From NCBI GenBank assembly GCA_964400745.1, contig CAYNVY010000002.1, positions 5,195 through 69,194 on the forward strand: DNA of 64,000 bases. The letters run 5' to 3'. The stretch is from an uncultured Enterobacteriaceae bacterium (lineage in GTDB: Bacteria; Pseudomonadota; Gammaproteobacteria; Burkholderiales; SG8-39). The translations under genes and the position numbers were made by a program. The notes under the pieces were generated by a model. It had not been told where the DNA came from. It made no database searches and saw nothing but the letters and a program-made list of their open reading frames with translations. Each line of letters begins with the position of its first letter. Position 1 is the first letter of the stretch. Shown one piece after another: positions 1,449-9,235 of the stretch.

Positions 1449-2279
1449 ATGCATCGTTCATTCTGGGTGGCAATGTGTTTTGGATTGTGGACCCTGCTCG
1501 CGGCGCCTTTCGCGTTTGCCAACGGGGTTTATCAAAGCGTCACCGGCGACGTGAAAGCGGCTTCGGGGACAGCGGCGCCGGCAAGCGTTGCGAGAAACCA
1601 GCGCGTACTCCCGGGGACGACCGTCACCACCGGACCCGGCGCCCAGGCCATCATCCGATTCGATGACGGGCACGCCGTCGTGCTCAACGAAAATTCGGAA
1701 TTCCGCATCAATCAATACAGTTTCGACAAGGACAAGCCGCAAAGCGACAACATCGCAGTGCAGATCCTCAGAGGCGCCCTGCGTTCGGTCAGCGGCCTGA
1801 TCGCCACGAGAAGCCGCACCGCATTCGCACTGGTTGCACCGCAGGCGACCATAGGCATACGCGGCACCGACTTCATGATCGCGCTGGTCAATCCGGCCTA
1901 TCTTTCGGTGATTCAGGGCTCGATCGCCGCGACCAACGCCGCTGGGACGGCGACGTTCGCTGCCGGCGCAACGGCGACGGTGGCATCCTCCGCCGCCTTG
2001 GCCGTGGCCATTCCCGCGTCTTCGCTACCTGCTTCGGTGGCGGCATCGTTCAACAGCATGAGTTCTGTGGCAATCGGTGCCGCCGGCGCGGGCGCCGGCG
2101 GTGCGGGTGGGGCCAGCGCGGCGACGGGCGCAGCAGCCGGTGGGATCACGGCAGGCATGGTTGCAGCCGGTATCGCGGCGGTCGGCGTGGTCGCGGCAGC
2201 CACTTCCGATTCAACCGAGAACCAGTCGGTCAGTTCTCCGGCACCGAGTGGCACTACGGGAACGACCGGTACGAAATAG
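1449..2279 (+). CDS. Secreted FecR-domain protein with a YjbE-like C-terminal tail
   Basis: Signal peptide ending AFAFA. FecR-like beta domain (VTTGPGAQAIIRFDDG...LNENSEFRI...ILRGALRSVSG...ATIGIRGTDF). Ala/Gly-rich linker, hydrophobic segment, ending GTTGTTGTK. Confidence 0.85.
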   Translation: MHRSFWVAMCFGLWTLLAAPFAFANGVYQSVTGDVKAASGTAAPASVARNQRVLPGTTVTTGPGAQAIIRFDDGHAVVLNENSEFRINQYSFDKDKPQSDNIAVQILRGALRSVSGLIATRSRTAFALVAPQATIGIRGTDFMIALVNPAYLSVIQGSIAATNAAGTATFAAGATATVASSAALAVAIPASSLPASVAASFNSMSSVAIGAAGAGAGGAGGASAATGAAAGGITAGMVAAGIAAVGVVAAATSDSTENQSVSSPAPSGTTGTTGTK

Positions 2280-2322
2280 TCCTTTAGAGGACTACGACGA
2301 CCCCACCCAATCCGTTGCGGCA

Positions 2323-2384
2323 ATCGAGTTGCCGTAGTCGCACAACTCGATCAGGCAGGCTCGCAAACGTTTGCGTTTGCGAGC
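2323..2384. terminator. Two hairpins between convergent genes, likely a bidirectional terminator
   Basis: ATCGAGTTG/CAACTCGAT (2323-2351) and a perfect 11-bp stem GCTCGCAAACG-TTTG-CGTTTGCGAGC (2359-2384). The U-tracts are weak. Confidence 0.55.
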
Positions 2385-2405
2385 AGTTTGGTGTCACGCT
2401 TGCCA

Positions 2406-2834
2406 TCAGATACACGGCGTCCACTCCGTCGCGTCCGACCATACGGTCGCGCCTTTGACCAGGGGTTTGTCGTCGACCACATGCGGTTGCCGGCCTGGAT
2501 CGGCTATGCGCACGCCGATGCGGTCCGCTCTTACTTCGATCACCTCGCCGCGGATCCAGTCGCGGACCGCGATGCCGACCACCAAGGCGCGGCAGACCTT
2601 TACACCCGGCCTTCCGACCGCAACCAGCGCCTCGGCTTTCGCCCGCGCCTGAGCGATCGACATCGGCGTCGGCACGCAGCGCGGATCGAGGGGCGCGGAA
2701 CCCGAAATGCGACACGCGGCTTGCGCGCCCGCCACAGGTTGCGCGTCGGCCGCAGTTTGCGCACTGGCCCCATGCGGAAACGCCGCCATCGAGAAGCAGC
2801 TCGCAAGCAAAGCGCGCATCAGCGTCACCCGCAT
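2406..2834 (-). CDS. Hypothetical exported protein with four Cys in the mature part
   Basis: Signal peptide ending GASA-Q and a beta-rich C-terminal domain ending WTPCI. I chose the ATG at 2834; the ORF track starts at 2948. Confidence 0.6.
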   Translation of the reverse strand: MRVTLMRALLASCFSMAAFPHGASAQTAADAQPVAGAQAACRISGSAPLDPRCVPTPMSIAQARAKAEALVAVGRPGVKVCRALVVGIAVRDWIRGEVIEVRADRIGVRIADPGRQPHVVDDKPLVKGATVWSDATEWTPCI

Positions 2835-3087
2835 ACAGCCAATGAAGCGAGCGCCGAATGGTATGAGGATCACGTAACGCTCCGCATAATTGAGGCAATG
2901 CATCTGAAATGTCGGCATAGGCATCCGATATTTCACAAAATTCGGCACTAGAGGCTAGGAACCAAGACGATAGGAACGGACGTGCCCTGCCCGCCTTGGA
3001 GTTCTGTATTTCTCAGGTAACCGATAGCGGCACAGCTACTTCTCGCAGAGAAAGCGCGTCGAAAAACGCCGGGTAAGCCTATAAGCC

Positions 3088-3498
3088 TCACGGAATAAAA
3101 TTCTCCAGCCCGGCCCCCGAGCGCAAGCCGTCGATGCTCTTGAAATGCGCGTCTAGCGTCAGCAACGCGGCACTATGCTCCAGGCTGCTGGCAGCAATCC
3201 ACAGGTCGTTGGTGGGAATGGGCTGGCCTTTGCGGCGCAGCGCCGCATAGACCAGCGCGTAAATATCGGCCGTGGCGGCAGTGCTGGGCACCACCTGCAC
3301 CCTGGTCGCGTTAAGAAACTGTGCCAGCTCGCCGCGATTGGCGCTCTCCCGCCCACCCGCGGCAAAGCCTGCCAACAGTTCACCCAACACGGTGGCGCAC
3401 ACAATGATGCTCGGCGCGTACTGCAGCACACCTAAAACCCGCTCGTCGCCGCGCTTGAACGCCGCGTAGGCGTTGGTGTCCAGCGCGATCGGGCGCAT
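3088..3498 (-). CDS. vapC: Type II toxin-antitoxin VapC (PIN-domain) toxin
   Basis: PIN motifs IALDTNAY, VLGELLAG, PIPTNDLWIAA and LLTLDAHF. Confidence 0.92.
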   Translation of the reverse strand: MRPIALDTNAYAAFKRGDERVLGVLQYAPSIIVCATVLGELLAGFAAGGRESANRGELAQFLNATRVQVVPSTAATADIYALVYAALRRKGQPIPTNDLWIAASSLEHSAALLTLDAHFKSIDGLRSGAGLENFIP

Positions 3499-3501
3499 CG
3501 C

Positions 3502-3762
3502 CTAAGAACCCCAAAGCGCCGCATCGACCTCGGCAAAGGCGGCAGTGCCTTGCTCAAAAGCCTGTGCGTCTGCGTCGCTCCAAGTGCCGGCGAGCGCATC
3601 AAGGTCGTCGAATTTCCGCAACGCTTGCGGCTGGGCTGTTGTGTCATTGCCCTGCAACAGGCGTACGACCAAACTGTTAAGACTACTGCCCTCCTGCTCT
3701 GCCTGAAGCTTGAGCCGGGCCAGCGCCTTGTCGTCCAATCCGCGAATGCTCATCGTCGCCAT
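3502..3762 (-). CDS. Ribbon-helix-helix antitoxin (VapB/FitA-like)
   Basis: 86 aa, MATMSIRGLDD...LKLQAEQEGSSLNSLV RHH pattern, acidic C-terminus, directly upstream of the PIN toxin. Confidence 0.85.
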   Translation of the reverse strand: MATMSIRGLDDKALARLKLQAEQEGSSLNSLVVRLLQGNDTTAQPQALRKFDDLDALAGTWSDADAQAFEQGTAAFAEVDAALWGS

Positions 3763-3824
3763 GATATTACCAATGCATTCAAGTTGAGTGTATTGATAAT
3801 ATCAGCTTGACCTGAAACATTCAA
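3762..3824 (-). promoter_or_regulatory. Promoter and palindromic operator of the TA operon
   Basis: TTGAAT (3824-3819), 17 nt, TATTAT (3801-3796). Inverted repeat with 21-bp arms (18/21 matching) at 3762-3782 and 3784-3804 overlaps the -10 box and the start codon. Confidence 0.75.
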
Positions 3825-3894
3825 ACACCGGCCTCCCCTCCTCGTCCTACGCCTCGCCCCCCTCGCACCCGCCGCGCCCTCAGCCCCTCAGCCC

Positions 3895-6800
3895 TCAATT
3901 CAACTCCCAAGCCACATTCACCCCCTGCGGATGGATCATTACCCTTGGCGCGCCTTTCCTGGGTGCGCGCGAGGCTTCCCAGAACACTTTTCCGATTCCG
4001 TAGCCGAGCAGGCTGCCGGCCACGGTATCGGACACCCAGTGCTGGCGGCTGCCGACGCGGGCGAGATTGGTGAGGGCGGCGACGCCGTAGAGCCAAGGCA
4101 TGTCGTATTGCTCCGCGAAAGGGGTTACGACCGCCCAGGCGACGGTGGTATGGCCGGACGGAAACGAGTCGTATCCGTCGGTTCCAGAGAAGGCCTTGAA
4201 TTCGCGATTACCAAGCTCATTTCCAGGTCTTGCACGGCCGGTAAGGGCTTTCAGCCCAGTCACCGCGATTAAGGCCGTGCCGCCTGCTTCCAGCGCTGCA
4301 TAGCCGGTGCGCGAACGCACCGGATCGCTGCCGTCCAGCGCCGCCACACCGGCACCGGCGATCGCCAGCCAGGGCAGCGCATTGCCAACCTTGTTCATGC
4401 CTTTCAACCAGCGGTTATCGGCATGATCCCTGGCAAAGTCGTCGCTGCGCCGATCAAGCGCGGCGCTCGCGAGCACCATGCCGGTCCCGACGACGCCGGC
4501 GCGCAGCCAGTTCGTATCCGCGGCCACGCGCGCCGAATCGGCAAAATCGCCGGCCAGTCGATTGACCGTACCGGGCACGGGCTGTAGCAATTCCGCAAGC
4601 TGCGTTGCTGGTGCGTCTGTCTCGCGGTCGTCCAGCCGGGCGAGCGGATCGCGCTCACTCACCGACGGATTGAGGTATTCGACCGCGACCGCATCCGCCA
4701 GGCCCGCGCGGCCGATTGCGCCGTTCAAGTAGCGCTCCAGTCGCAGCAGATCGACGAATTCGTAGCGCACCACCGGGTCGGTGAATAGCGCCAGCGTGAC
4801 GCGCAGCTCGCGCATATCCAGGGGGCCGAGCTTCAGCGCCGTGCGCGCCACGCGCCCGATGGCGCGGCTGACCGGGGACAGATTGTTGGTCGACAACGCA
4901 ATCGACAATCGATGCGAACTATCGTACGAAACCTTGATATTGCGGAACTCCTGCCGGTACAAGGCCTCGACCAGGCGCTGCTCGTAGCCTTGCGCATCGG
5001 CGGCCCATTGCTCCGTCGCCGGCTTCGGCAACACGCTGGCAAATAGATCAGGCCCTTTGGGCGGGGGCGTCCACGTCTCGCGCCGGTCCGAGGGGATGGC
5101 GGCATGGTTCGGTGTGGGCGCGGCCCTGATGCTCAAGGTGCGATCGTCGCGCAGATTGGTCAGATCGTACAGGCCGGTTCGCGCGAGCATGGCGCCACCG
5201 TCGCGGGTGAGCGGCTTCCAGATGAAATTCGCCGTCGTGCCGCTGGAGCGTGTAAGGAAAGCGTCGAACGGAAGACTCAGGAAGATGCCCTTGTCGAAAC
5301 TGCCTTCGCCGAATTGTTCCGACGACATATTCGTCTTGGTGAAAAATCCGCCGAGCGCGACGCCGTTCTCGAACACACGCGAGACCTGCACTGTCGCTCC
5401 GATGTCTTTCGCAAGATAGCGGCCGACGCTCAGATTCGCCATCACGTTGTTCCACCCTGTATCCCAATATAGGGTGGCATGTCCTGTTGCCACACGATAG
5501 CCCGTTTGCTCCTCGGCCTTGTCAAACCCGAAGTCCTGCCTGAAATTGCGCTGCTGCACCGCGTTCACGTCCACGCCGAACGCCACCCGGCTGGCGAACG
5601 GCCGGTACAGCCACTCGCCGCCTACCCCCGCGAACATGTCCTCGATGTAGCCGCCGTAGAGGCTGTAGTACTGATTCTTGTCGAATCTGCCCATGTGGGT
5701 AAGCTGCAGATTCGGCATGGTCAGCGGCCCGTAGGTCAGGTATTCGCGCAGATGTGTCCGCACCCTGGGCGCGCCGATACTGCTGGTCGGCGGGTCGTAG
5801 CGAAATTTGTCGTAGTTGTCCAGCAGACGCAGGCGCAGGCTGCCTTGCAGCCATGTGTTGTCGCCGAGCCGCAGCTTCACCCGCTCCAAGGCGGATAGCT
5901 GATACAACACAAAGCCGTCCGGCCCGCCCAGCGTATGCCGGTAGTCCGGTCCCAGATTCGATTCGAAGCGCGGCCGGACGGACTGATACAGCGCGGATTG
6001 CGCGGCAGTCTGTCCCGGTGAACGCGCGATGATCGCCTCGCGTTGCTCGTGCAACGGCAATGGCCGGATCTGCTGCGCGACCCAGGCGTCGCGGTCGATC
6101 ACGTGTTCCGCCATATCGACTCCGCCCTCGCTGTAGGCGAGGACGAAACGATCCACCGCTGCCGGGGCATCGCGGTGCAGCACCGCAGCGACCCGATCGG
6201 TGCGCTCGCGCCAAAAGCGGGCCCGGGCGCCGTCTATTTCCAGCCGGATTTCACGTCCGAATTGCTCGATGCGCTGGACACGCCATTGGCTCTGAATCTC
6301 GATATCACGCGTGGTCGCCGCCCAGTCCGGCGCCTTCTGCGCACGCATGGACGTCACCGGCACGCGCGGAGGATCGCTCAATTTGAGCATGCTGATGCCG
6401 TCCAGCTGCGTATGCAAAGTGATGCCCAGCATCGCGGTATTGCCGCGCTCCACACCCAGCGTCACATCGACCGATCGATTCGCGCGATAAACCGCGCCGA
6501 AGTTCCAGGGCGAGCTTTGGCGCAGATTGTTGGACTGCGGCTCGTGCTGGTAATCGTTGCCGTCGTACTCAAGTTTCAGAATCAGCGGCTTCCAGGGCGT
6601 CTGGTATTGCACCCCACCGAACAGCGCAGTCGGCCCTCTGAAATAACTATTGAGCGCGAAATTGCCGCCTTGACCGGTGTCGGCCTTGCGCGTATCGAAT
6701 GCAGAGCTAATGCCCGATAGCGGATTGCGCAGATTGCCGCGGCCGCCGACGTAGCCCCAACCCAAGCCTAGGCTCCAGTCGAACGCGCCAGTGCGCTTGC

Positions 6801-7992
6801 TCGCCACCAGGTACTCCCCCGAGAACAGCCCGGTTCCGGCTATGTCCCGCAGTCCGACCGCGACTTGCGGGACATAGGCCGATTCAGTTACAAGCCGGAA
6901 CTTGGCGTCCAGGCTCTTGTCTTTGTACGCCTGGCTTCCGCTCAATGCCTCCGAACCGTATGGGATATTGCTCACATTGGTATAGCGAAACCCCGCCTCC
7001 AGCCAGTCGAACGGCTGAAACATGATGTTGCCTTGCGTGTAGGGATAGGCCCGGCTCATATTGAACGTGAAATGGCCGGTGTTCTGCATCCTGGCGCTCG
7101 GTGTCTGTAGAAGTCCTGCGCCGCCCCAGTCGCTCGCCGTCACTACCAGACTTCTGGATCGCGCCGGGATGGTTTGACTATTCATCTGCAAGGCAACAGT
7201 TTCGTTTTGCCCAGCGGCAGGATCAGCCGCCGGCCCCTGCGTCGCCAAGAACGAGATCAGCCTGTACGAAAACGCCTCCGGCCAGCCACCGTCCCGAGGC
7301 GGAGCCCAGATCCACGCTCCCGGCGCAGGCTCGTCCTGCGCTTCAGAATTCCACAACCCGGCACCGAACCGCTGCACTCTCCCATCCGGCTGCGCCACCC
7401 ACGCCCAGTCCACACCCTGCCAGGTCCCCGGGCTGCAGGCCCTGACATAGGCTATCGCTTCACTCCCGGGGGTATGCATCACTGCGCAGCGCGAACCGCC
7501 CGCAGTCACTACCGTCACGCTGCGCGGACGCTCAGGCAAGACCACGCTATGCCCAGGCTCTAGAATCGGATCGCGGTTCGGATTTGCCTGCAACCAGCGC
7601 GCGTCCGGCACCGCCACCGGGACTCTCCCGGTGACCGGCAGTGCGGCTATCCATCCCCGCAACCGCGCCGCAGTTTCCGCGTCAACTCTGAGTCCACCGA
7701 CCTGCCCCGAAAGGCGCCTGAGCAGATCAAGTCGCAACTCACCCTGCGAAGGCCTCTCGCCCGGCACGCGCCAACTCAATCCAAGCGGGTAGGCATTCGG
7801 CGTGACCGGCTGCTCCAGCAGCCAGTCGCTCAGCCGTCTAGGCGCACCCTGTCCAATTACAAACGACGGAAAAGAGACAAGTAACGCAGTAATCGCTATG
7901 GTAAGTAGTCGCGGGGGCGCGCTCGCGCCCTGAAAGAAGTCCCCTTGGGGGGCTCGCGAATATCGTCTAGCGTCAGCAAAGCCGGATTTCAT
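3895..7992 (-). CDS. Fusion protein: GfcC/YjbG domain + YjbH/GfcD outer-membrane barrel protein + PAP2 phosphatase domain
   Basis: GfcC-like N-part (LPVTGRVPV...NPNRDPILEPG...WAWVAQPDG...EPAPGAWIW). YjbH signatures SDWGGAGLLQTPSARM, YKDKSLDAK, FGEGSFDKG, WKPLTRDGG. PAP2 motifs KALTGRARP, SFPSGH, ARVGSRQHWVSD. Start set at the TAATG overlap with an AGAGG RBS. Confidence 0.88.
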   Translation of the reverse strand: MKSGFADARRYSRAPQGDFFQGASAPPRLLTIAITALLVSFPSFVIGQGAPRRLSDWLLEQPVTPNAYPLGLSWRVPGERPSQGELRLDLLRRLSGQVGGLRVDAETAARLRGWIAALPVTGRVPVAVPDARWLQANPNRDPILEPGHSVVLPERPRSVTVVTAGGSRCAVMHTPGSEAIAYVRACSPGTWQGVDWAWVAQPDGRVQRFGAGLWNSEAQDEPAPGAWIWAPPRDGGWPEAFSYRLISFLATQGPAADPAAGQNETVALQMNSQTIPARSRSLVVTASDWGGAGLLQTPSARMQNTGHFTFNMSRAYPYTQGNIMFQPFDWLEAGFRYTNVSNIPYGSEALSGSQAYKDKSLDAKFRLVTESAYVPQVAVGLRDIAGTGLFSGEYLVASKRTGAFDWSLGLGWGYVGGRGNLRNPLSGISSAFDTRKADTGQGGNFALNSYFRGPTALFGGVQYQTPWKPLILKLEYDGNDYQHEPQSNNLRQSSPWNFGAVYRANRSVDVTLGVERGNTAMLGITLHTQLDGISMLKLSDPPRVPVTSMRAQKAPDWAATTRDIEIQSQWRVQRIEQFGREIRLEIDGARARFWRERTDRVAAVLHRDAPAAVDRFVLAYSEGGVDMAEHVIDRDAWVAQQIRPLPLHEQREAIIARSPGQTAAQSALYQSVRPRFESNLGPDYRHTLGGPDGFVLYQLSALERVKLRLGDNTWLQGSLRLRLLDNYDKFRYDPPTSSIGAPRVRTHLREYLTYGPLTMPNLQLTHMGRFDKNQYYSLYGGYIEDMFAGVGGEWLYRPFASRVAFGVDVNAVQQRNFRQDFGFDKAEEQTGYRVATGHATLYWDTGWNNVMANLSVGRYLAKDIGATVQVSRVFENGVALGGFFTKTNMSSEQFGEGSFDKGIFLSLPFDAFLTRSSGTTANFIWKPLTRDGGAMLARTGLYDLTNLRDDRTLSIRAAPTPNHAAIPSDRRETWTPPPKGPDLFASVLPKPATEQWAADAQGYEQRLVEALYRQEFRNIKVSYDSSHRLSIALSTNNLSPVSRAIGRVARTALKLGPLDMRELRVTLALFTDPVVRYEFVDLLRLERYLNGAIGRAGLADAVAVEYLNPSVSERDPLARLDDRETDAPATQLAELLQPVPGTVNRLAGDFADSARVAADTNWLRAGVVGTGMVLASAALDRRSDDFARDHADNRWLKGMNKVGNALPWLAIAGAGVAALDGSDPVRSRTGYAALEAGGTALIAVTGLKALTGRARPGNELGNREFKAFSGTDGYDSFPSGHTTVAWAVVTPFAEQYDMPWLYGVAALTNLARVGSRQHWVSDTVAGSLLGYGIGKVFWEASRAPRKGAPRVMIHPQGVNVAWELN

Positions 7993-8726
7993 TACCTCTT
8001 CCCAACCACACTCTGCTCCTGCACCGGCCACCGCTGCCAGCTAAAACACAGCCCCTTCTCCAAGCACTGCTCGCCATAAACGACCACTTCCTTCCCATCC
8101 TGCATTTCCACCGCGTACCGCGCCGGCGGCAACACCTCATTGCGGTCAACGCCTCCCGCTTCCAGTCGCTCCTCAAACCAGATAAAACCTTGCGGATCCA
8201 GCCCCTGCAAATCGCTCTTCCGTGGTTGCGACACTACACGCACCGACATCGCATCCCGCACGCCCAAGCGATACCCCGGCATCACATCCCGCACGCGATT
8301 CCAGCGATGCGCCTGATCGCTTCGCGCCAGCGCTGACCACGACGGAAGCGCAGGCATAGAGACGCTGCGCCATTCGGTAGTGAGGCCAGTCGCACCGACT
8401 AGTCGACCATTTTGCAGGCGCAACACTTCCCGCTCGGCGCTGTACCAGACTTCTACTGGCCCCGACGAGTCGACATCCTCATAGCCGAGCGCAAGCAAGA
8501 CCACTCGGCCGGCAATAGTAAGCCTGAGATAGCGAAAATTCGGATTGAGGCGAGCGCTCGCGACGTTATCCGCGCCACCGGCGGCTTGGCGCAGGGTTTG
8601 CAGCATCGAATTGCTGGCGGGAGAACAAGAGGCCAGGGCAACAAGCGACGAAATTATCGCCGCCCGTACCACCGTGGCGATATCGGTAGAAGATCGAGGT
8701 TTTCCGGAAGCAGGCATTGGCGGCAT
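7992..8726 (-). CDS. YjbF/GfcB-family outer-membrane lipoprotein
   Basis: Lipobox LASC. YjbF-like motifs VVLLALGY and WYSAEREVLRLQNGRLVGATGL. Lies between the yjbE-like and yjbGH-like genes. Confidence 0.85.
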   Translation of the reverse strand: MPPMPASGKPRSSTDIATVVRAAIISSLVALASCSPASNSMLQTLRQAAGGADNVASARLNPNFRYLRLTIAGRVVLLALGYEDVDSSGPVEVWYSAEREVLRLQNGRLVGATGLTTEWRSVSMPALPSWSALARSDQAHRWNRVRDVMPGYRLGVRDAMSVRVVSQPRKSDLQGLDPQGFIWFEERLEAGGVDRNEVLPPARYAVEMQDGKEVVVYGEQCLEKGLCFSWQRWPVQEQSVVGKR

Positions 8727-8910
8727 ATTGCGTCGCGGGCACTCAGCGCGACTTCGACCGAATACCCCACCGCACTAGAGTTCCTATCCAGATTCAGAAA
8801 AGGGCTGGCAACAACGGCTCAACACAAACATACCCGAGTTCCGATCCGTGGAACCCCTCTAGACTTGGCGGACTTGCCATAAAGCCAGCGAAATGTTGCG
8901 CCGGCAAAGC

Positions 8911-8951
8911 ACAAAAACAAAAAATCCTTGGCTAGTATCGCCAAGGATTTT
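8911..8951 (-). terminator. Rho-independent terminator after the yjbE-like gene
   Basis: 12-bp stem AAAATCCTTGGC/GCCAAGGATTTT (8921-8951) followed on the minus strand by a T-rich tract, 17 nt after the stop codon. Confidence 0.85.
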
Positions 8952-8968
8952 CTGGAAGAAATGACTGC

Positions 8969-9235
8969 TTACTTTGTACCGGTTGTGCCTGTCGTTCCAG
9001 CCGCAGCCGGAGTCGTGACTGCATCATCAGTGGAAGAAGATACCGCAGCCGCTACCGCAACTACCGCGACTGCCGCTGCAACCATCCCTGCCGTAATTCC
9101 GCCAACCGCAGCCGCGGATGCACCACCTGCGCCAGCACCACCAGCACCACCAGCACCACCCTGTCCTTGTTGTTGCGCCAATGCGCTACCTGCAACGAAC
9201 ATGGACGCAACCAAAACAGCTAGCGCTTTTTTCAT
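8969..9235 (-). CDS. Small secreted Gly/Ala/Thr-rich YjbE/GfcA-like protein
   Basis: 88 aa. Signal peptide ending SALA-Q, Gly-rich linker, hydrophobic segment and Thr-rich tail. Strong AGGAGA RBS. First gene of a yjbEFGH-like order. Confidence 0.8.
   Translation of the reverse strand: MKKALAVLVASMFVAGSALAQQQGQGGAGGAGGAGAGGASAAAVGGITAGMVAAAVAVVAVAAAVSSSTDDAVTTPAAAGTTGTTGTK

Follow-up and report, generated by a model that had tools for sequence, protein, structure and literature searches.

The question raised by the locus described here is why two secreted proteins, one with a FecR-like domain and the other encoded in the yjbE (gfcA) position of a yjb/gfc operon, should have almost the same C-terminal end. 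Both are encoded on a stretch of 64,000 nucleotides (hereafter the window) of an uncultured bacterium of the Burkholderiales lineage SG8-39 (assembly GCA_964400745.1, contig CAYNVY010000002.1, positions 5,195 to 69,194 of the forward strand). On the comparative evidence given below, we put at an even chance the reading that the shared C-terminal part, hereafter the YjbE module, is a protein substrate of the YjbF/G/H machine and an outer-membrane anchor with its Thr-rich end outside, and that the FecR domain of the fusion protein is a periplasmic plug or tether.

The two proteins and their tails were found as first described, with 276 amino acids (aa) on the forward strand for the FecR-like protein and 88 aa on the reverse strand for the YjbE-like one. 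The module common to both is composed of a Gly/Ala linker, a hydrophobic stretch of small residues, an acidic/Ser segment and a Thr-rich end, and 27 of the last 42 residues are identical between the two. Among the 26 identical residues with degenerate codons, nine are encoded by the same codon, where codon usage predicts 6.0; codon sharing so near to expectation argues against a fresh DNA copy between the two tails of the window and agrees with the conservation at the protein level that the preliminary description had proposed. Its remark that the hydrophobic stretch is followed by acidic, Ser and Thr residues, with no basic cluster, was likewise borne out, the 10 residues after the stretch containing no Lys or Arg and two Asp or Glu in both proteins.

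The C-termini of 48,847 six-frame open reading frames (ORFs) of the genome were scored without composition correction with a seed profile containing both tails of the window. Three ORFs scored high (76, 73 and 66 bits) and the next one reached 31.5 bits; since both tails were in the seed, the evidence is the gap and not the scores themselves. The three tailed ORFs are the two genes of the window and a second yjbE copy on another contig (C51:18933-19334, forward strand), and the tail is absent from six other FecR-like ORFs of the same genome. The second yjbE copy is located after ychF, remote from the yjb operon; 40 of its last 42 residues are identical to those of the yjbE of the window at a DNA identity of 78%, and no strong hairpin lies 3' of it. 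Four yjbE copies with near-identical tails were observed in another genome (G492). About 20 PEP-CTERM-like ORFs are distributed over several contigs of the genome of the window, and beside this number the three tailed ORFs do not fit the earlier proposal of a signal borne, like PEP-CTERM, by diverse secreted proteins.

The hydrophobic stretch was compared with those of 15 control anchors, which are crude ORFs from the genome of the window. About 80% of the stretch is Gly, Ala and Val, and large hydrophobic residues make up 15% of it against 43% in the control anchors. Of the 35 FecR tails and the 22 YjbE proteins, one each has at least two Lys or Arg after the stretch, against 9 of the 15 controls, and the net charge after the stretch is zero or negative in 33 of the 35 FecR tails. 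Kyte-Doolittle means were about 2.05 for the stretch and 2.07 for the control anchors. Judged by its sequence, the module is unlike an ordinary stop-transfer anchor. A comparison of insertion energies with PEP-CTERM signals was dropped because the 19-residue scoring window caught basic residues and the control had been chosen by them. No column is invariant in the tail alignments, and the TTGTTGTK repeat is specific to the lineage, other tails finishing in poly-Thr or in HH.

No Pfam match was obtained for the 88-aa protein, and PF11106 does not find it; a homologue (P0132) was matched by PF11106 at 22.2 bits, under the cut-off of 27.9 bits, and one gammaproteobacterial protein from the yjbE slot is also missed, at 25.3 bits. 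The protein is called YjbE-like because of its position upstream of yjbF and its homologues with weak PF11106 matches. Like GfcA as recognized by position, it is small, has a signal peptide, a hydrophobic stretch and a Ser/Thr-rich end, and is encoded directly upstream of yjbF; the signal peptide, the hydrophobic stretch and the Thr-rich end are also present in gamma- and alphaproteobacterial yjbE-slot proteins. The segment N-terminal to the module varies, including Gly/Ala linkers, a TolA-like helix (locus L324) and one or two FecR domains, and four genomes of one genus carry a basic Cys-pair segment and a Pro/Ala rod ahead of the module.

The portability of the YjbE body was confirmed by a family of FecR fusions, in which the tail is kept in 117 of the 119 best homologues listed (475 were found), the other two looking truncated or frameshifted, and distant members at 37-46% identity are also tailed. 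The Atlas contains a similar FecR cluster from Thermodesulfobacteriota. Co-occurrence with YjbH was estimated in several samples, which overlap and consist of kindred genomes, and no p-value is given as evidence. In the sample of the order (201 genomes), YjbH over the cut-off was present in 24 genomes and a FecR match in 93; among the best 30 of these 93 FecR loci, nine other genomes with a tailed FecR were found, all nine being YjbH-positive. A tail profile built from those loci matched 17 of the 201 genomes, 16 of which have YjbH, the 17th match being a Tat signal peptide; this profile is circular for YjbE, and the 177 YjbH-negative genomes serve as the fair negative set. In a genome collection, 80 loci comprised 35 tailed FecRs, 39 untailed ones and six cut by a contig end. 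The yjbH gene lay within the locus for 26 of the 35 tailed FecRs and for none of the 39 untailed ones, 18 of which have more than 7 kb on both sides; YjbH was found elsewhere in seven of the nine remaining tailed genomes (33 of 35 in total), and the two without it are small metagenome-assembled genomes (MAGs). Among 80 metagenome loci, mostly on short contigs, yjbH accompanied 20 of the 40 tailed FecRs and none of the 35 without a tail. In the sample of the family (81 genomes), in which the diverged tails of two genomes fell under the score threshold and were judged by eye, a tailed FecR was present in 8 of 24 YjbH-positive genomes and in 1 of 57 YjbH-negative ones, the latter being 80% complete. 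YjbH, on the other hand, does not imply a tailed FecR: most genomes with YjbH carry only the small YjbE, and of 20 yjbH regions from gamma- and alphaproteobacteria, most contained small YjbE-type genes and a FecR passenger was seen in none. The tail is hence not confined to the one FecR protein on which it was first noticed, and it does co-occur with yjbF/H.

The earlier expectation that the module carries folded passenger domains held for FecR and, in the loci examined, for no other folded family. Over all loci examined, FecR (one or two copies) was the sole folded passenger family, besides unfolded-looking spacers and one small Cys-pair domain, and in 34 YjbH genomes a profile of limited sensitivity found the tail on FecR or small proteins only. 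Broad tail profiles gave 16 matches in 1.84 billion representatives, nearly all of them small YjbE-like proteins, and a search for longer tailed proteins gave six matches; being insensitive through composition bias, these profiles do not show the absence of other passengers. A phylum-wide tail search at E 0.05 matched 33 of 301 genomes, mostly as noise, and missed the tails of the genome of the window itself; in the 30 loci examined from it, matches other than YjbE were mostly signal peptides or internal stretches. P0147 and P0148, two longer matches that seem to be long or joined ORFs, are left out of the passenger count. A stretch similar to the hydrophobic-then-acidic end of two small alphaproteobacterial proteins (L105 and L120, see below) occurs inside a large adhesin-like ORF (L106). 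An untailed FecR paralogue stands in tandem with the tailed copy at L047 (7461-8222), and tandem FecR paralogues with two differing tails were observed at L363.

Besides co-occurring with YjbH, the tail follows the YjbE and the YjbH subtype of its own genome. In 20 genomes with both genes, the resident YjbE was the best match of the FecR tail in 12, ranked second to fourth in seven and eighth in one, with a mean of 0.51 for the resident pair and 0.24 for the comparison, and the match holds for gene pairs that are split over separate contigs or separated by more than 100 kb (G027 and G175). Codon sharing was near expectation in most of the 20 pairs and high in two (30/33 and 19/29, respectively); by these counts, DNA copying renews the tails at times, and in the other cases their likeness is maintained at the protein level. 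YjbH falls into two types, A and B. At type B loci, 37 of 38 tails have a His among the last five residues; at type A loci this is so in 1 of 28, and in 0 of 13 additional gamma- and alphaproteobacterial tails. Entered in these counts are three loci that were retrieved twice, a false ORF and an incomplete type A locus classed as B. On a tree of the FecR domain only, in which seven YjbH type labels derive from Pfam scores, the type changes five times by parsimony, with at least three changes forced by well-supported branches; the history of the tail is thus uncoupled from that of the FecR domain and coupled to the local machine. Type B loci (L038-L050 and others) have a divergent YjbH, His-ending YjbE tails and no yjbF match at all; at one of them a weak DUF3108-like gene is a possible stand-in for yjbF.

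The well-supported clade that contains all tailed FecRs also contains several tail losses. Six Gallionella-like FecRs forming a nested clade (L168, L170, L173, L177, L178 and L179) end, via a Pro/Ala linker, in a barrel with a terminal Trp, the class of which was assigned by Atlas neighbours and by matches to the outer-membrane porin CarO (three of three barrels scanned, E 2.6e-15 to 8.6e-20). In such small barrels the N-terminus is periplasmic, which would put the FecR domain at the inner face of the outer membrane. A YjbH match was found in none of the six barrel-FecR genomes and in none of the four other tail-less members tested, these being MAGs, for which absence is not proven. Together with the co-occurrence and the co-variation with the resident YjbE and YjbH subtype, the replacement by a barrel upholds the link to the Yjb/Gfc machine that had been suggested at the outset. 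At L163, a FecR is fused to a c-type cytochrome region.

The FecR assignment was made by PF04773 (E 9.5e-12). The structure was modelled from an alignment of 48 sequences; the model is confident as far as about residue 210, and the tail has no predicted structure. The whole domain resembles the periplasmic domains of anti-sigma factors, which gave the best structural matches (6OVK, E 9.8e-6), and a structural match to the periplasmic domain of PupR was obtained. Its first subdomain superposes on the RIN plug 5IX9 with a root-mean-square deviation of 1.3 over 61 columns (28% identity), and 5IX9 is also found by a sequence profile (E 1.7e-4); NF033682, the LapA-type retention module, gave 22 bits against a cut-off of 50 (E 1.4e-4); the likeness to that module is one of fold only. 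RIN is a periplasmic plug, too large for the pore, that retains an adhesin in its outer-membrane pore (PMC5550230; here and below, statements from cited sources refer to the available parts of their texts). The Gly-Thr pair is kept in 74 of 74 complete FecR ORFs of the genome loci, tailed and untailed alike, and in the protein of the window it is probably equivalent to G181-T182, at which E. coli FecR cleaves itself (PMC12036975). The cytoplasmic sigma-binding N-terminus is absent, as the domain in the model begins at residue 25 after a signal-like helix, and neither an extracytoplasmic function (ECF) sigma factor nor a TonB-dependent receptor was found among the scanned neighbours. Considering the plug-like fold and the replacement by a CarO-like barrel, periplasmic retention of the passenger looks likelier than the surface display that had been proposed.

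In the mechanism proposed, the Gly/Ala/Val stretch would not be held in the inner membrane after Sec export, because large hydrophobic residues are scarce in it and it is not followed by a basic cluster. YjbF, for which a LolA-like fold is given in the literature, would ferry the module, the Ser/Thr-rich C-terminus would be threaded into the C-terminal barrel of YjbH and the hydrophobic stretch would exit that barrel by the predicted lateral gate. The Thr-rich end would then face outward and may carry polysaccharide from the adjacent glycan cluster. The N-terminal part would remain periplasmic, as the Gly/Ala linker in plain YjbE or as the folded FecR-like domain in the fusion, where the domain would be a retention plug or a periplasmic tether. 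The passenger is optional, YjbE being without it in most YjbH genomes. Glycosylation of the tail is plausible from context, namely the glycan cluster and two PF11846 (PglL-type O-oligosaccharyltransferase) genes of the genome, neither of which shows modification. The further-reaching version, in which YjbH/GfcD would be a protein-sorting insertase that reads a subtype-specific C-terminal code, passes a Ser/Thr tail loaded with glycan to the outside and lets the small-residue helix out laterally into the outer membrane, YjbE/GfcA the anchor of the group 4 capsule and the module a tag able to fix folded domains in the outer membrane without BAM or Lol, is offered tentatively, being possible and clearly the less probable part. 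A predicted complex of the YjbH domain with mature YjbE scored 0.00, which is evidence neither way.

Several points weigh against the module as a YjbF/G/H substrate and outer-membrane anchor. The tailed FecRs form one clade, and the kinship of the genomes and their presence in several samples make the counts overstate independence. The exchange of tail for barrel happened once, and the genomes that show it are incomplete MAGs. A FecR subclade with charged C-termini has YjbH in three of five genomes; in one charged-end genome, a frameshifted tailed FecR paralogue adjoins yjbH. Small alphaproteobacterial proteins with a hydrophobic-then-acidic end are encoded at L105 and L120 in genomes without a YjbH match; these proteins (L105:1303-1602 and L120:1483-1818) lack the Thr run. 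Ferrying by YjbF, as proposed above, cannot apply everywhere, yjbF matches being absent from the type B loci. Recent DNA copying is evident in 2 of the 20 pairs of FecR tail and YjbE, GfcA is annotated and predicted as an inner-membrane protein (PMC8592465; bioRxiv 10.1101/391854), and co-assembly with YjbE would account just as well for the resemblance of the tail to the resident YjbE.

Such co-assembly is the core of a doubtful alternative, in which the module is a self-association element, the YjbE helices pack into a membrane assembly or fibre with the FecR protein as a minor subunit, and YjbH is a conduit or scaffold. The FecR tails do match the YjbE of their own genome and not a universal consensus, the scattered extra yjbE copies keep near-identical tails (two copies in the genome of the window and four in G492), strong hairpins 3' of YjbE-type genes suit an abundant subunit, and the N-barrel of YjbH is FapF-like, for which amyloid secretion has been proposed (PMC8346858, PMC9603273). 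Self-association alone accounts neither for the agreement of the very C-terminus with the YjbH subtype nor for the ability of a barrel to replace the tail; it is compatible with the substrate-and-anchor reading and may be part of it. The same two observations bear on the module as an inner-membrane anchor, from which the FecR domain would reach through the periplasm to YjbH as an anti-sigma domain contacts its receptor: it is not apparent why a cytoplasmic end should vary with the subtype of an outer-membrane barrel, and the natural replacement of the tail is an outer-membrane barrel. With the signal peptide cleaved, moreover, the acidic Thr-rich end would lie in the cytoplasm without basic residues. 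We therefore consider such an anchor unlikely, in spite of the literature predictions for GfcA (PMC8592465; bioRxiv 10.1101/391854), the equal Kyte-Doolittle means, the anti-sigma periplasmic domains as best structural matches and a yjbE-slot protein with a TolA-like spacer.

In exosortase systems, C-terminal signals with a hydrophobic core are tied to polysaccharide loci, and the YjbE module could be a true signal of this kind, cut or transferred by a dedicated enzyme so that the passenger would be attached to glycan or lipid on the surface. Its C-terminal position, hydrophobic core, lineage-specific look and polysaccharide locus agree with this, as do the PAP2 domain fused to YjbH and the report that FecR-domain proteins of Leptospira are partly surface-exposed (PMC13719327). 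It is nevertheless improbable: no PEP-CTERM or GlyGly-CTERM NCBIfam match was obtained at E up to 0.1 and no rhombosortase (TIGR03902) match in the genome (88% complete), the tail has neither a basic cluster nor an invariant residue, and in the loci examined, neither a conserved neighbouring protease nor a variety of passengers was seen. Least probable by far is that the tails are alike without a function in common, because DNA was copied repeatedly between neighbouring genes or because the sequences are of low complexity. Recent copying in 2 of 20 pairs, near-identical hairpins at L144, the low complexity of the module and the matches of broad profiles to unrelated signal peptides would be expected under it; this explanation is already largely refuted by codons near chance in most pairs while the residues match, by matches that persist across contigs or over more than 100 kb and by the retention of the tail in nearly all listed homologues.

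As for the substrate-and-anchor reading, a natural fusion that tracks the resident machine, and a barrel in its place where no such machine was detected, are comparative evidence for YjbE as a protein cargo. The FecR domain is a ready reporter, detectable where a tiny Gly/Ala/Thr peptide is not. If the reading is true, it would add a way of placing helical anchors in the outer membrane. The available literature leaves open what YjbE/GfcA does, what YjbH/GfcD takes as its substrate and what anchors the group 4 capsule, and the question of YjbE and GfcD is hereby made testable.

The positions of the features are listed in Table 1. The YjbH domain of the fusion protein was assigned by PF06082 (E 8.2e-238) and the GfcC part by PF06251 (22.8 bits against a cut-off of 20), and this YjbH is the sole one found in the genome, 88% complete. 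Domain scans of the neighbours of the fecR gene gave DAGK, SRPBCC, the W-x-P-C protein, VapBC and the yjb genes. The gene order is yjbE-yjbF-yjbG/H, adjoining the large glycan cluster with Wzz, which also encodes an initiating sugar transferase, glycosyltransferases, two NeuB proteins, two cytidylyltransferases and an ATP-binding cassette exporter. The content of guanine plus cytosine falls to 51% at 9.6-20 kb of the window, that of the genome being 64%. The PAP2 phosphatase-family domain (3895-4300, reverse strand) is C-terminal to YjbH, and the same fusion is present in many relatives. Homologues of the W-x-P-C gene have MORN repeats in five of five scanned, and a homologue of the gene is present in 15 of 26 loci with tailed FecR and yjbH and in 0 of 39 untailed loci. 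Hairpins with a z-score below -2 follow 21 of 30 yjbE genes and also 12 of 21 fecR genes, and are not specific to yjbE; at L144, the hairpins 3' of yjbE and fecR are near-identical.

Table 1. Features of the locus, with positions in the window (or residues of the FecR-like protein where so stated).
Feature	Position	Strand	Remarks
FecR-like protein with YjbE-type C-terminal module	1449..2279	+	276 aa; PF04773 at residues 58-159
Signal peptide of the FecR protein	residues 1-24	+	inferred
Folded beta-rich domain, residues 25-205	1521..2063	+	structure model, fold matches
Gly139-Thr140 in IGIRGTDF, inferred FecR/FoxR self-cleavage site	1863..1868	+	conservation
Gly/Ala linker, length variable	2064..2138	+	predicted local distance difference test (pLDDT) <50 from residue 212
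YjbE-type module: Gly/Ala/Val hydrophobic stretch, Ser/Asp/Glu, Thr-rich end	2139..2276	+	tail comparison
Conserved partner gene ending W-x-P-C	2406..2948	-	MORN in homologues; this copy without MORN repeats
VapBC-like pair (PIN domain and FitA-like antitoxin)	3088-3762	-	between yjbH fusion and W-x-P-C gene
YjbG(GfcC)-YjbH(GfcD)-PAP2 fusion	3895..8031	-	1378 aa; YjbH domain 5155-7137, type A
YjbF (GfcB)	7992..8726	-	PF11102, 34.1 bits against cut-off of 25.9
Strong terminator-like hairpin, yjbE/yjbF intergenic	8918..8954	-	15 pairs; z-score -6.8
YjbE/GfcA-slot protein, 88 aa	8969..9235	-	signal peptide, Gly/Ala linker, module 8972-9103
Glycan cluster, very large	9566-63488		beyond the 88-aa gene; about 50 kb

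In the literature, the function of gfcA is given as unknown and a LolA-like fold as that of GfcB, and it is speculated in one sentence that GfcA is O-antigen-modified cargo sent to GfcD (PMC8592465). GfcD's C-terminal barrel was modelled with a lateral gate and with lipid A as the cargo (PMC11494523), YjbH/GfcD was described as a double barrel with a FapF-like N-barrel, amyloid secretion being suggested (PMC8346858, PMC9603273), and the capsule anchor is called unknown (PMC13621845). gfcA was reported as highly variable, with a predicted inner-membrane and serotype-specific role (bioRxiv 10.1101/391854), and yjbE mRNA as exceeding yjbFGH mRNA, as cited second-hand (PMC8208086); the available part of PMC8117528 contains nothing on YjbE itself. 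No YjbE-tailed fusion and no sorting role of YjbE was found in the literature searched, which was mostly open-access and did not include the gfcA alignments in the supplements of bioRxiv 10.1101/391854. The YjbE-tailed FecR protein is a variant of the known yjb/gfc system, and the idea of GfcA as cargo is already in print.

With yjbEFGH/gfcABCD, the system of group 4 capsule export, the locus shares the order yjbE-yjbF-yjbG/H beside a glycan cluster with Wzz. It differs in that YjbG, YjbH and PAP2 are fused, that the YjbE module is also the C-terminus of a folded FecR protein and that a type B branch exists without a yjbF match and with His-ending tails. The likeness to PEP-CTERM/exosortase and GlyGly-CTERM/rhombosortase consists in a C-terminal hydrophobic core on a signal-peptide protein and a link to polysaccharide genes; here, in contrast, no signature motif, basic cluster or dedicated peptidase was found, the passengers belong to one family and the module is also a free-standing small protein. 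From FecR, PupR and FoxR anti-sigma factors, with which PF04773, a PupR-like fold and the conserved Gly-Thr are shared, the protein is set apart by the missing sigma-binding N-terminus and by the scanned neighbours, which lack their sigma factor and receptor. The RIN-like first subdomain recalls the retention module of LapA and MpIBP, whereas the protein described here has a Sec-type signal peptide, no type I repeats, an extended part of about 70 residues and, as its proposed partner, YjbH in place of TolC.

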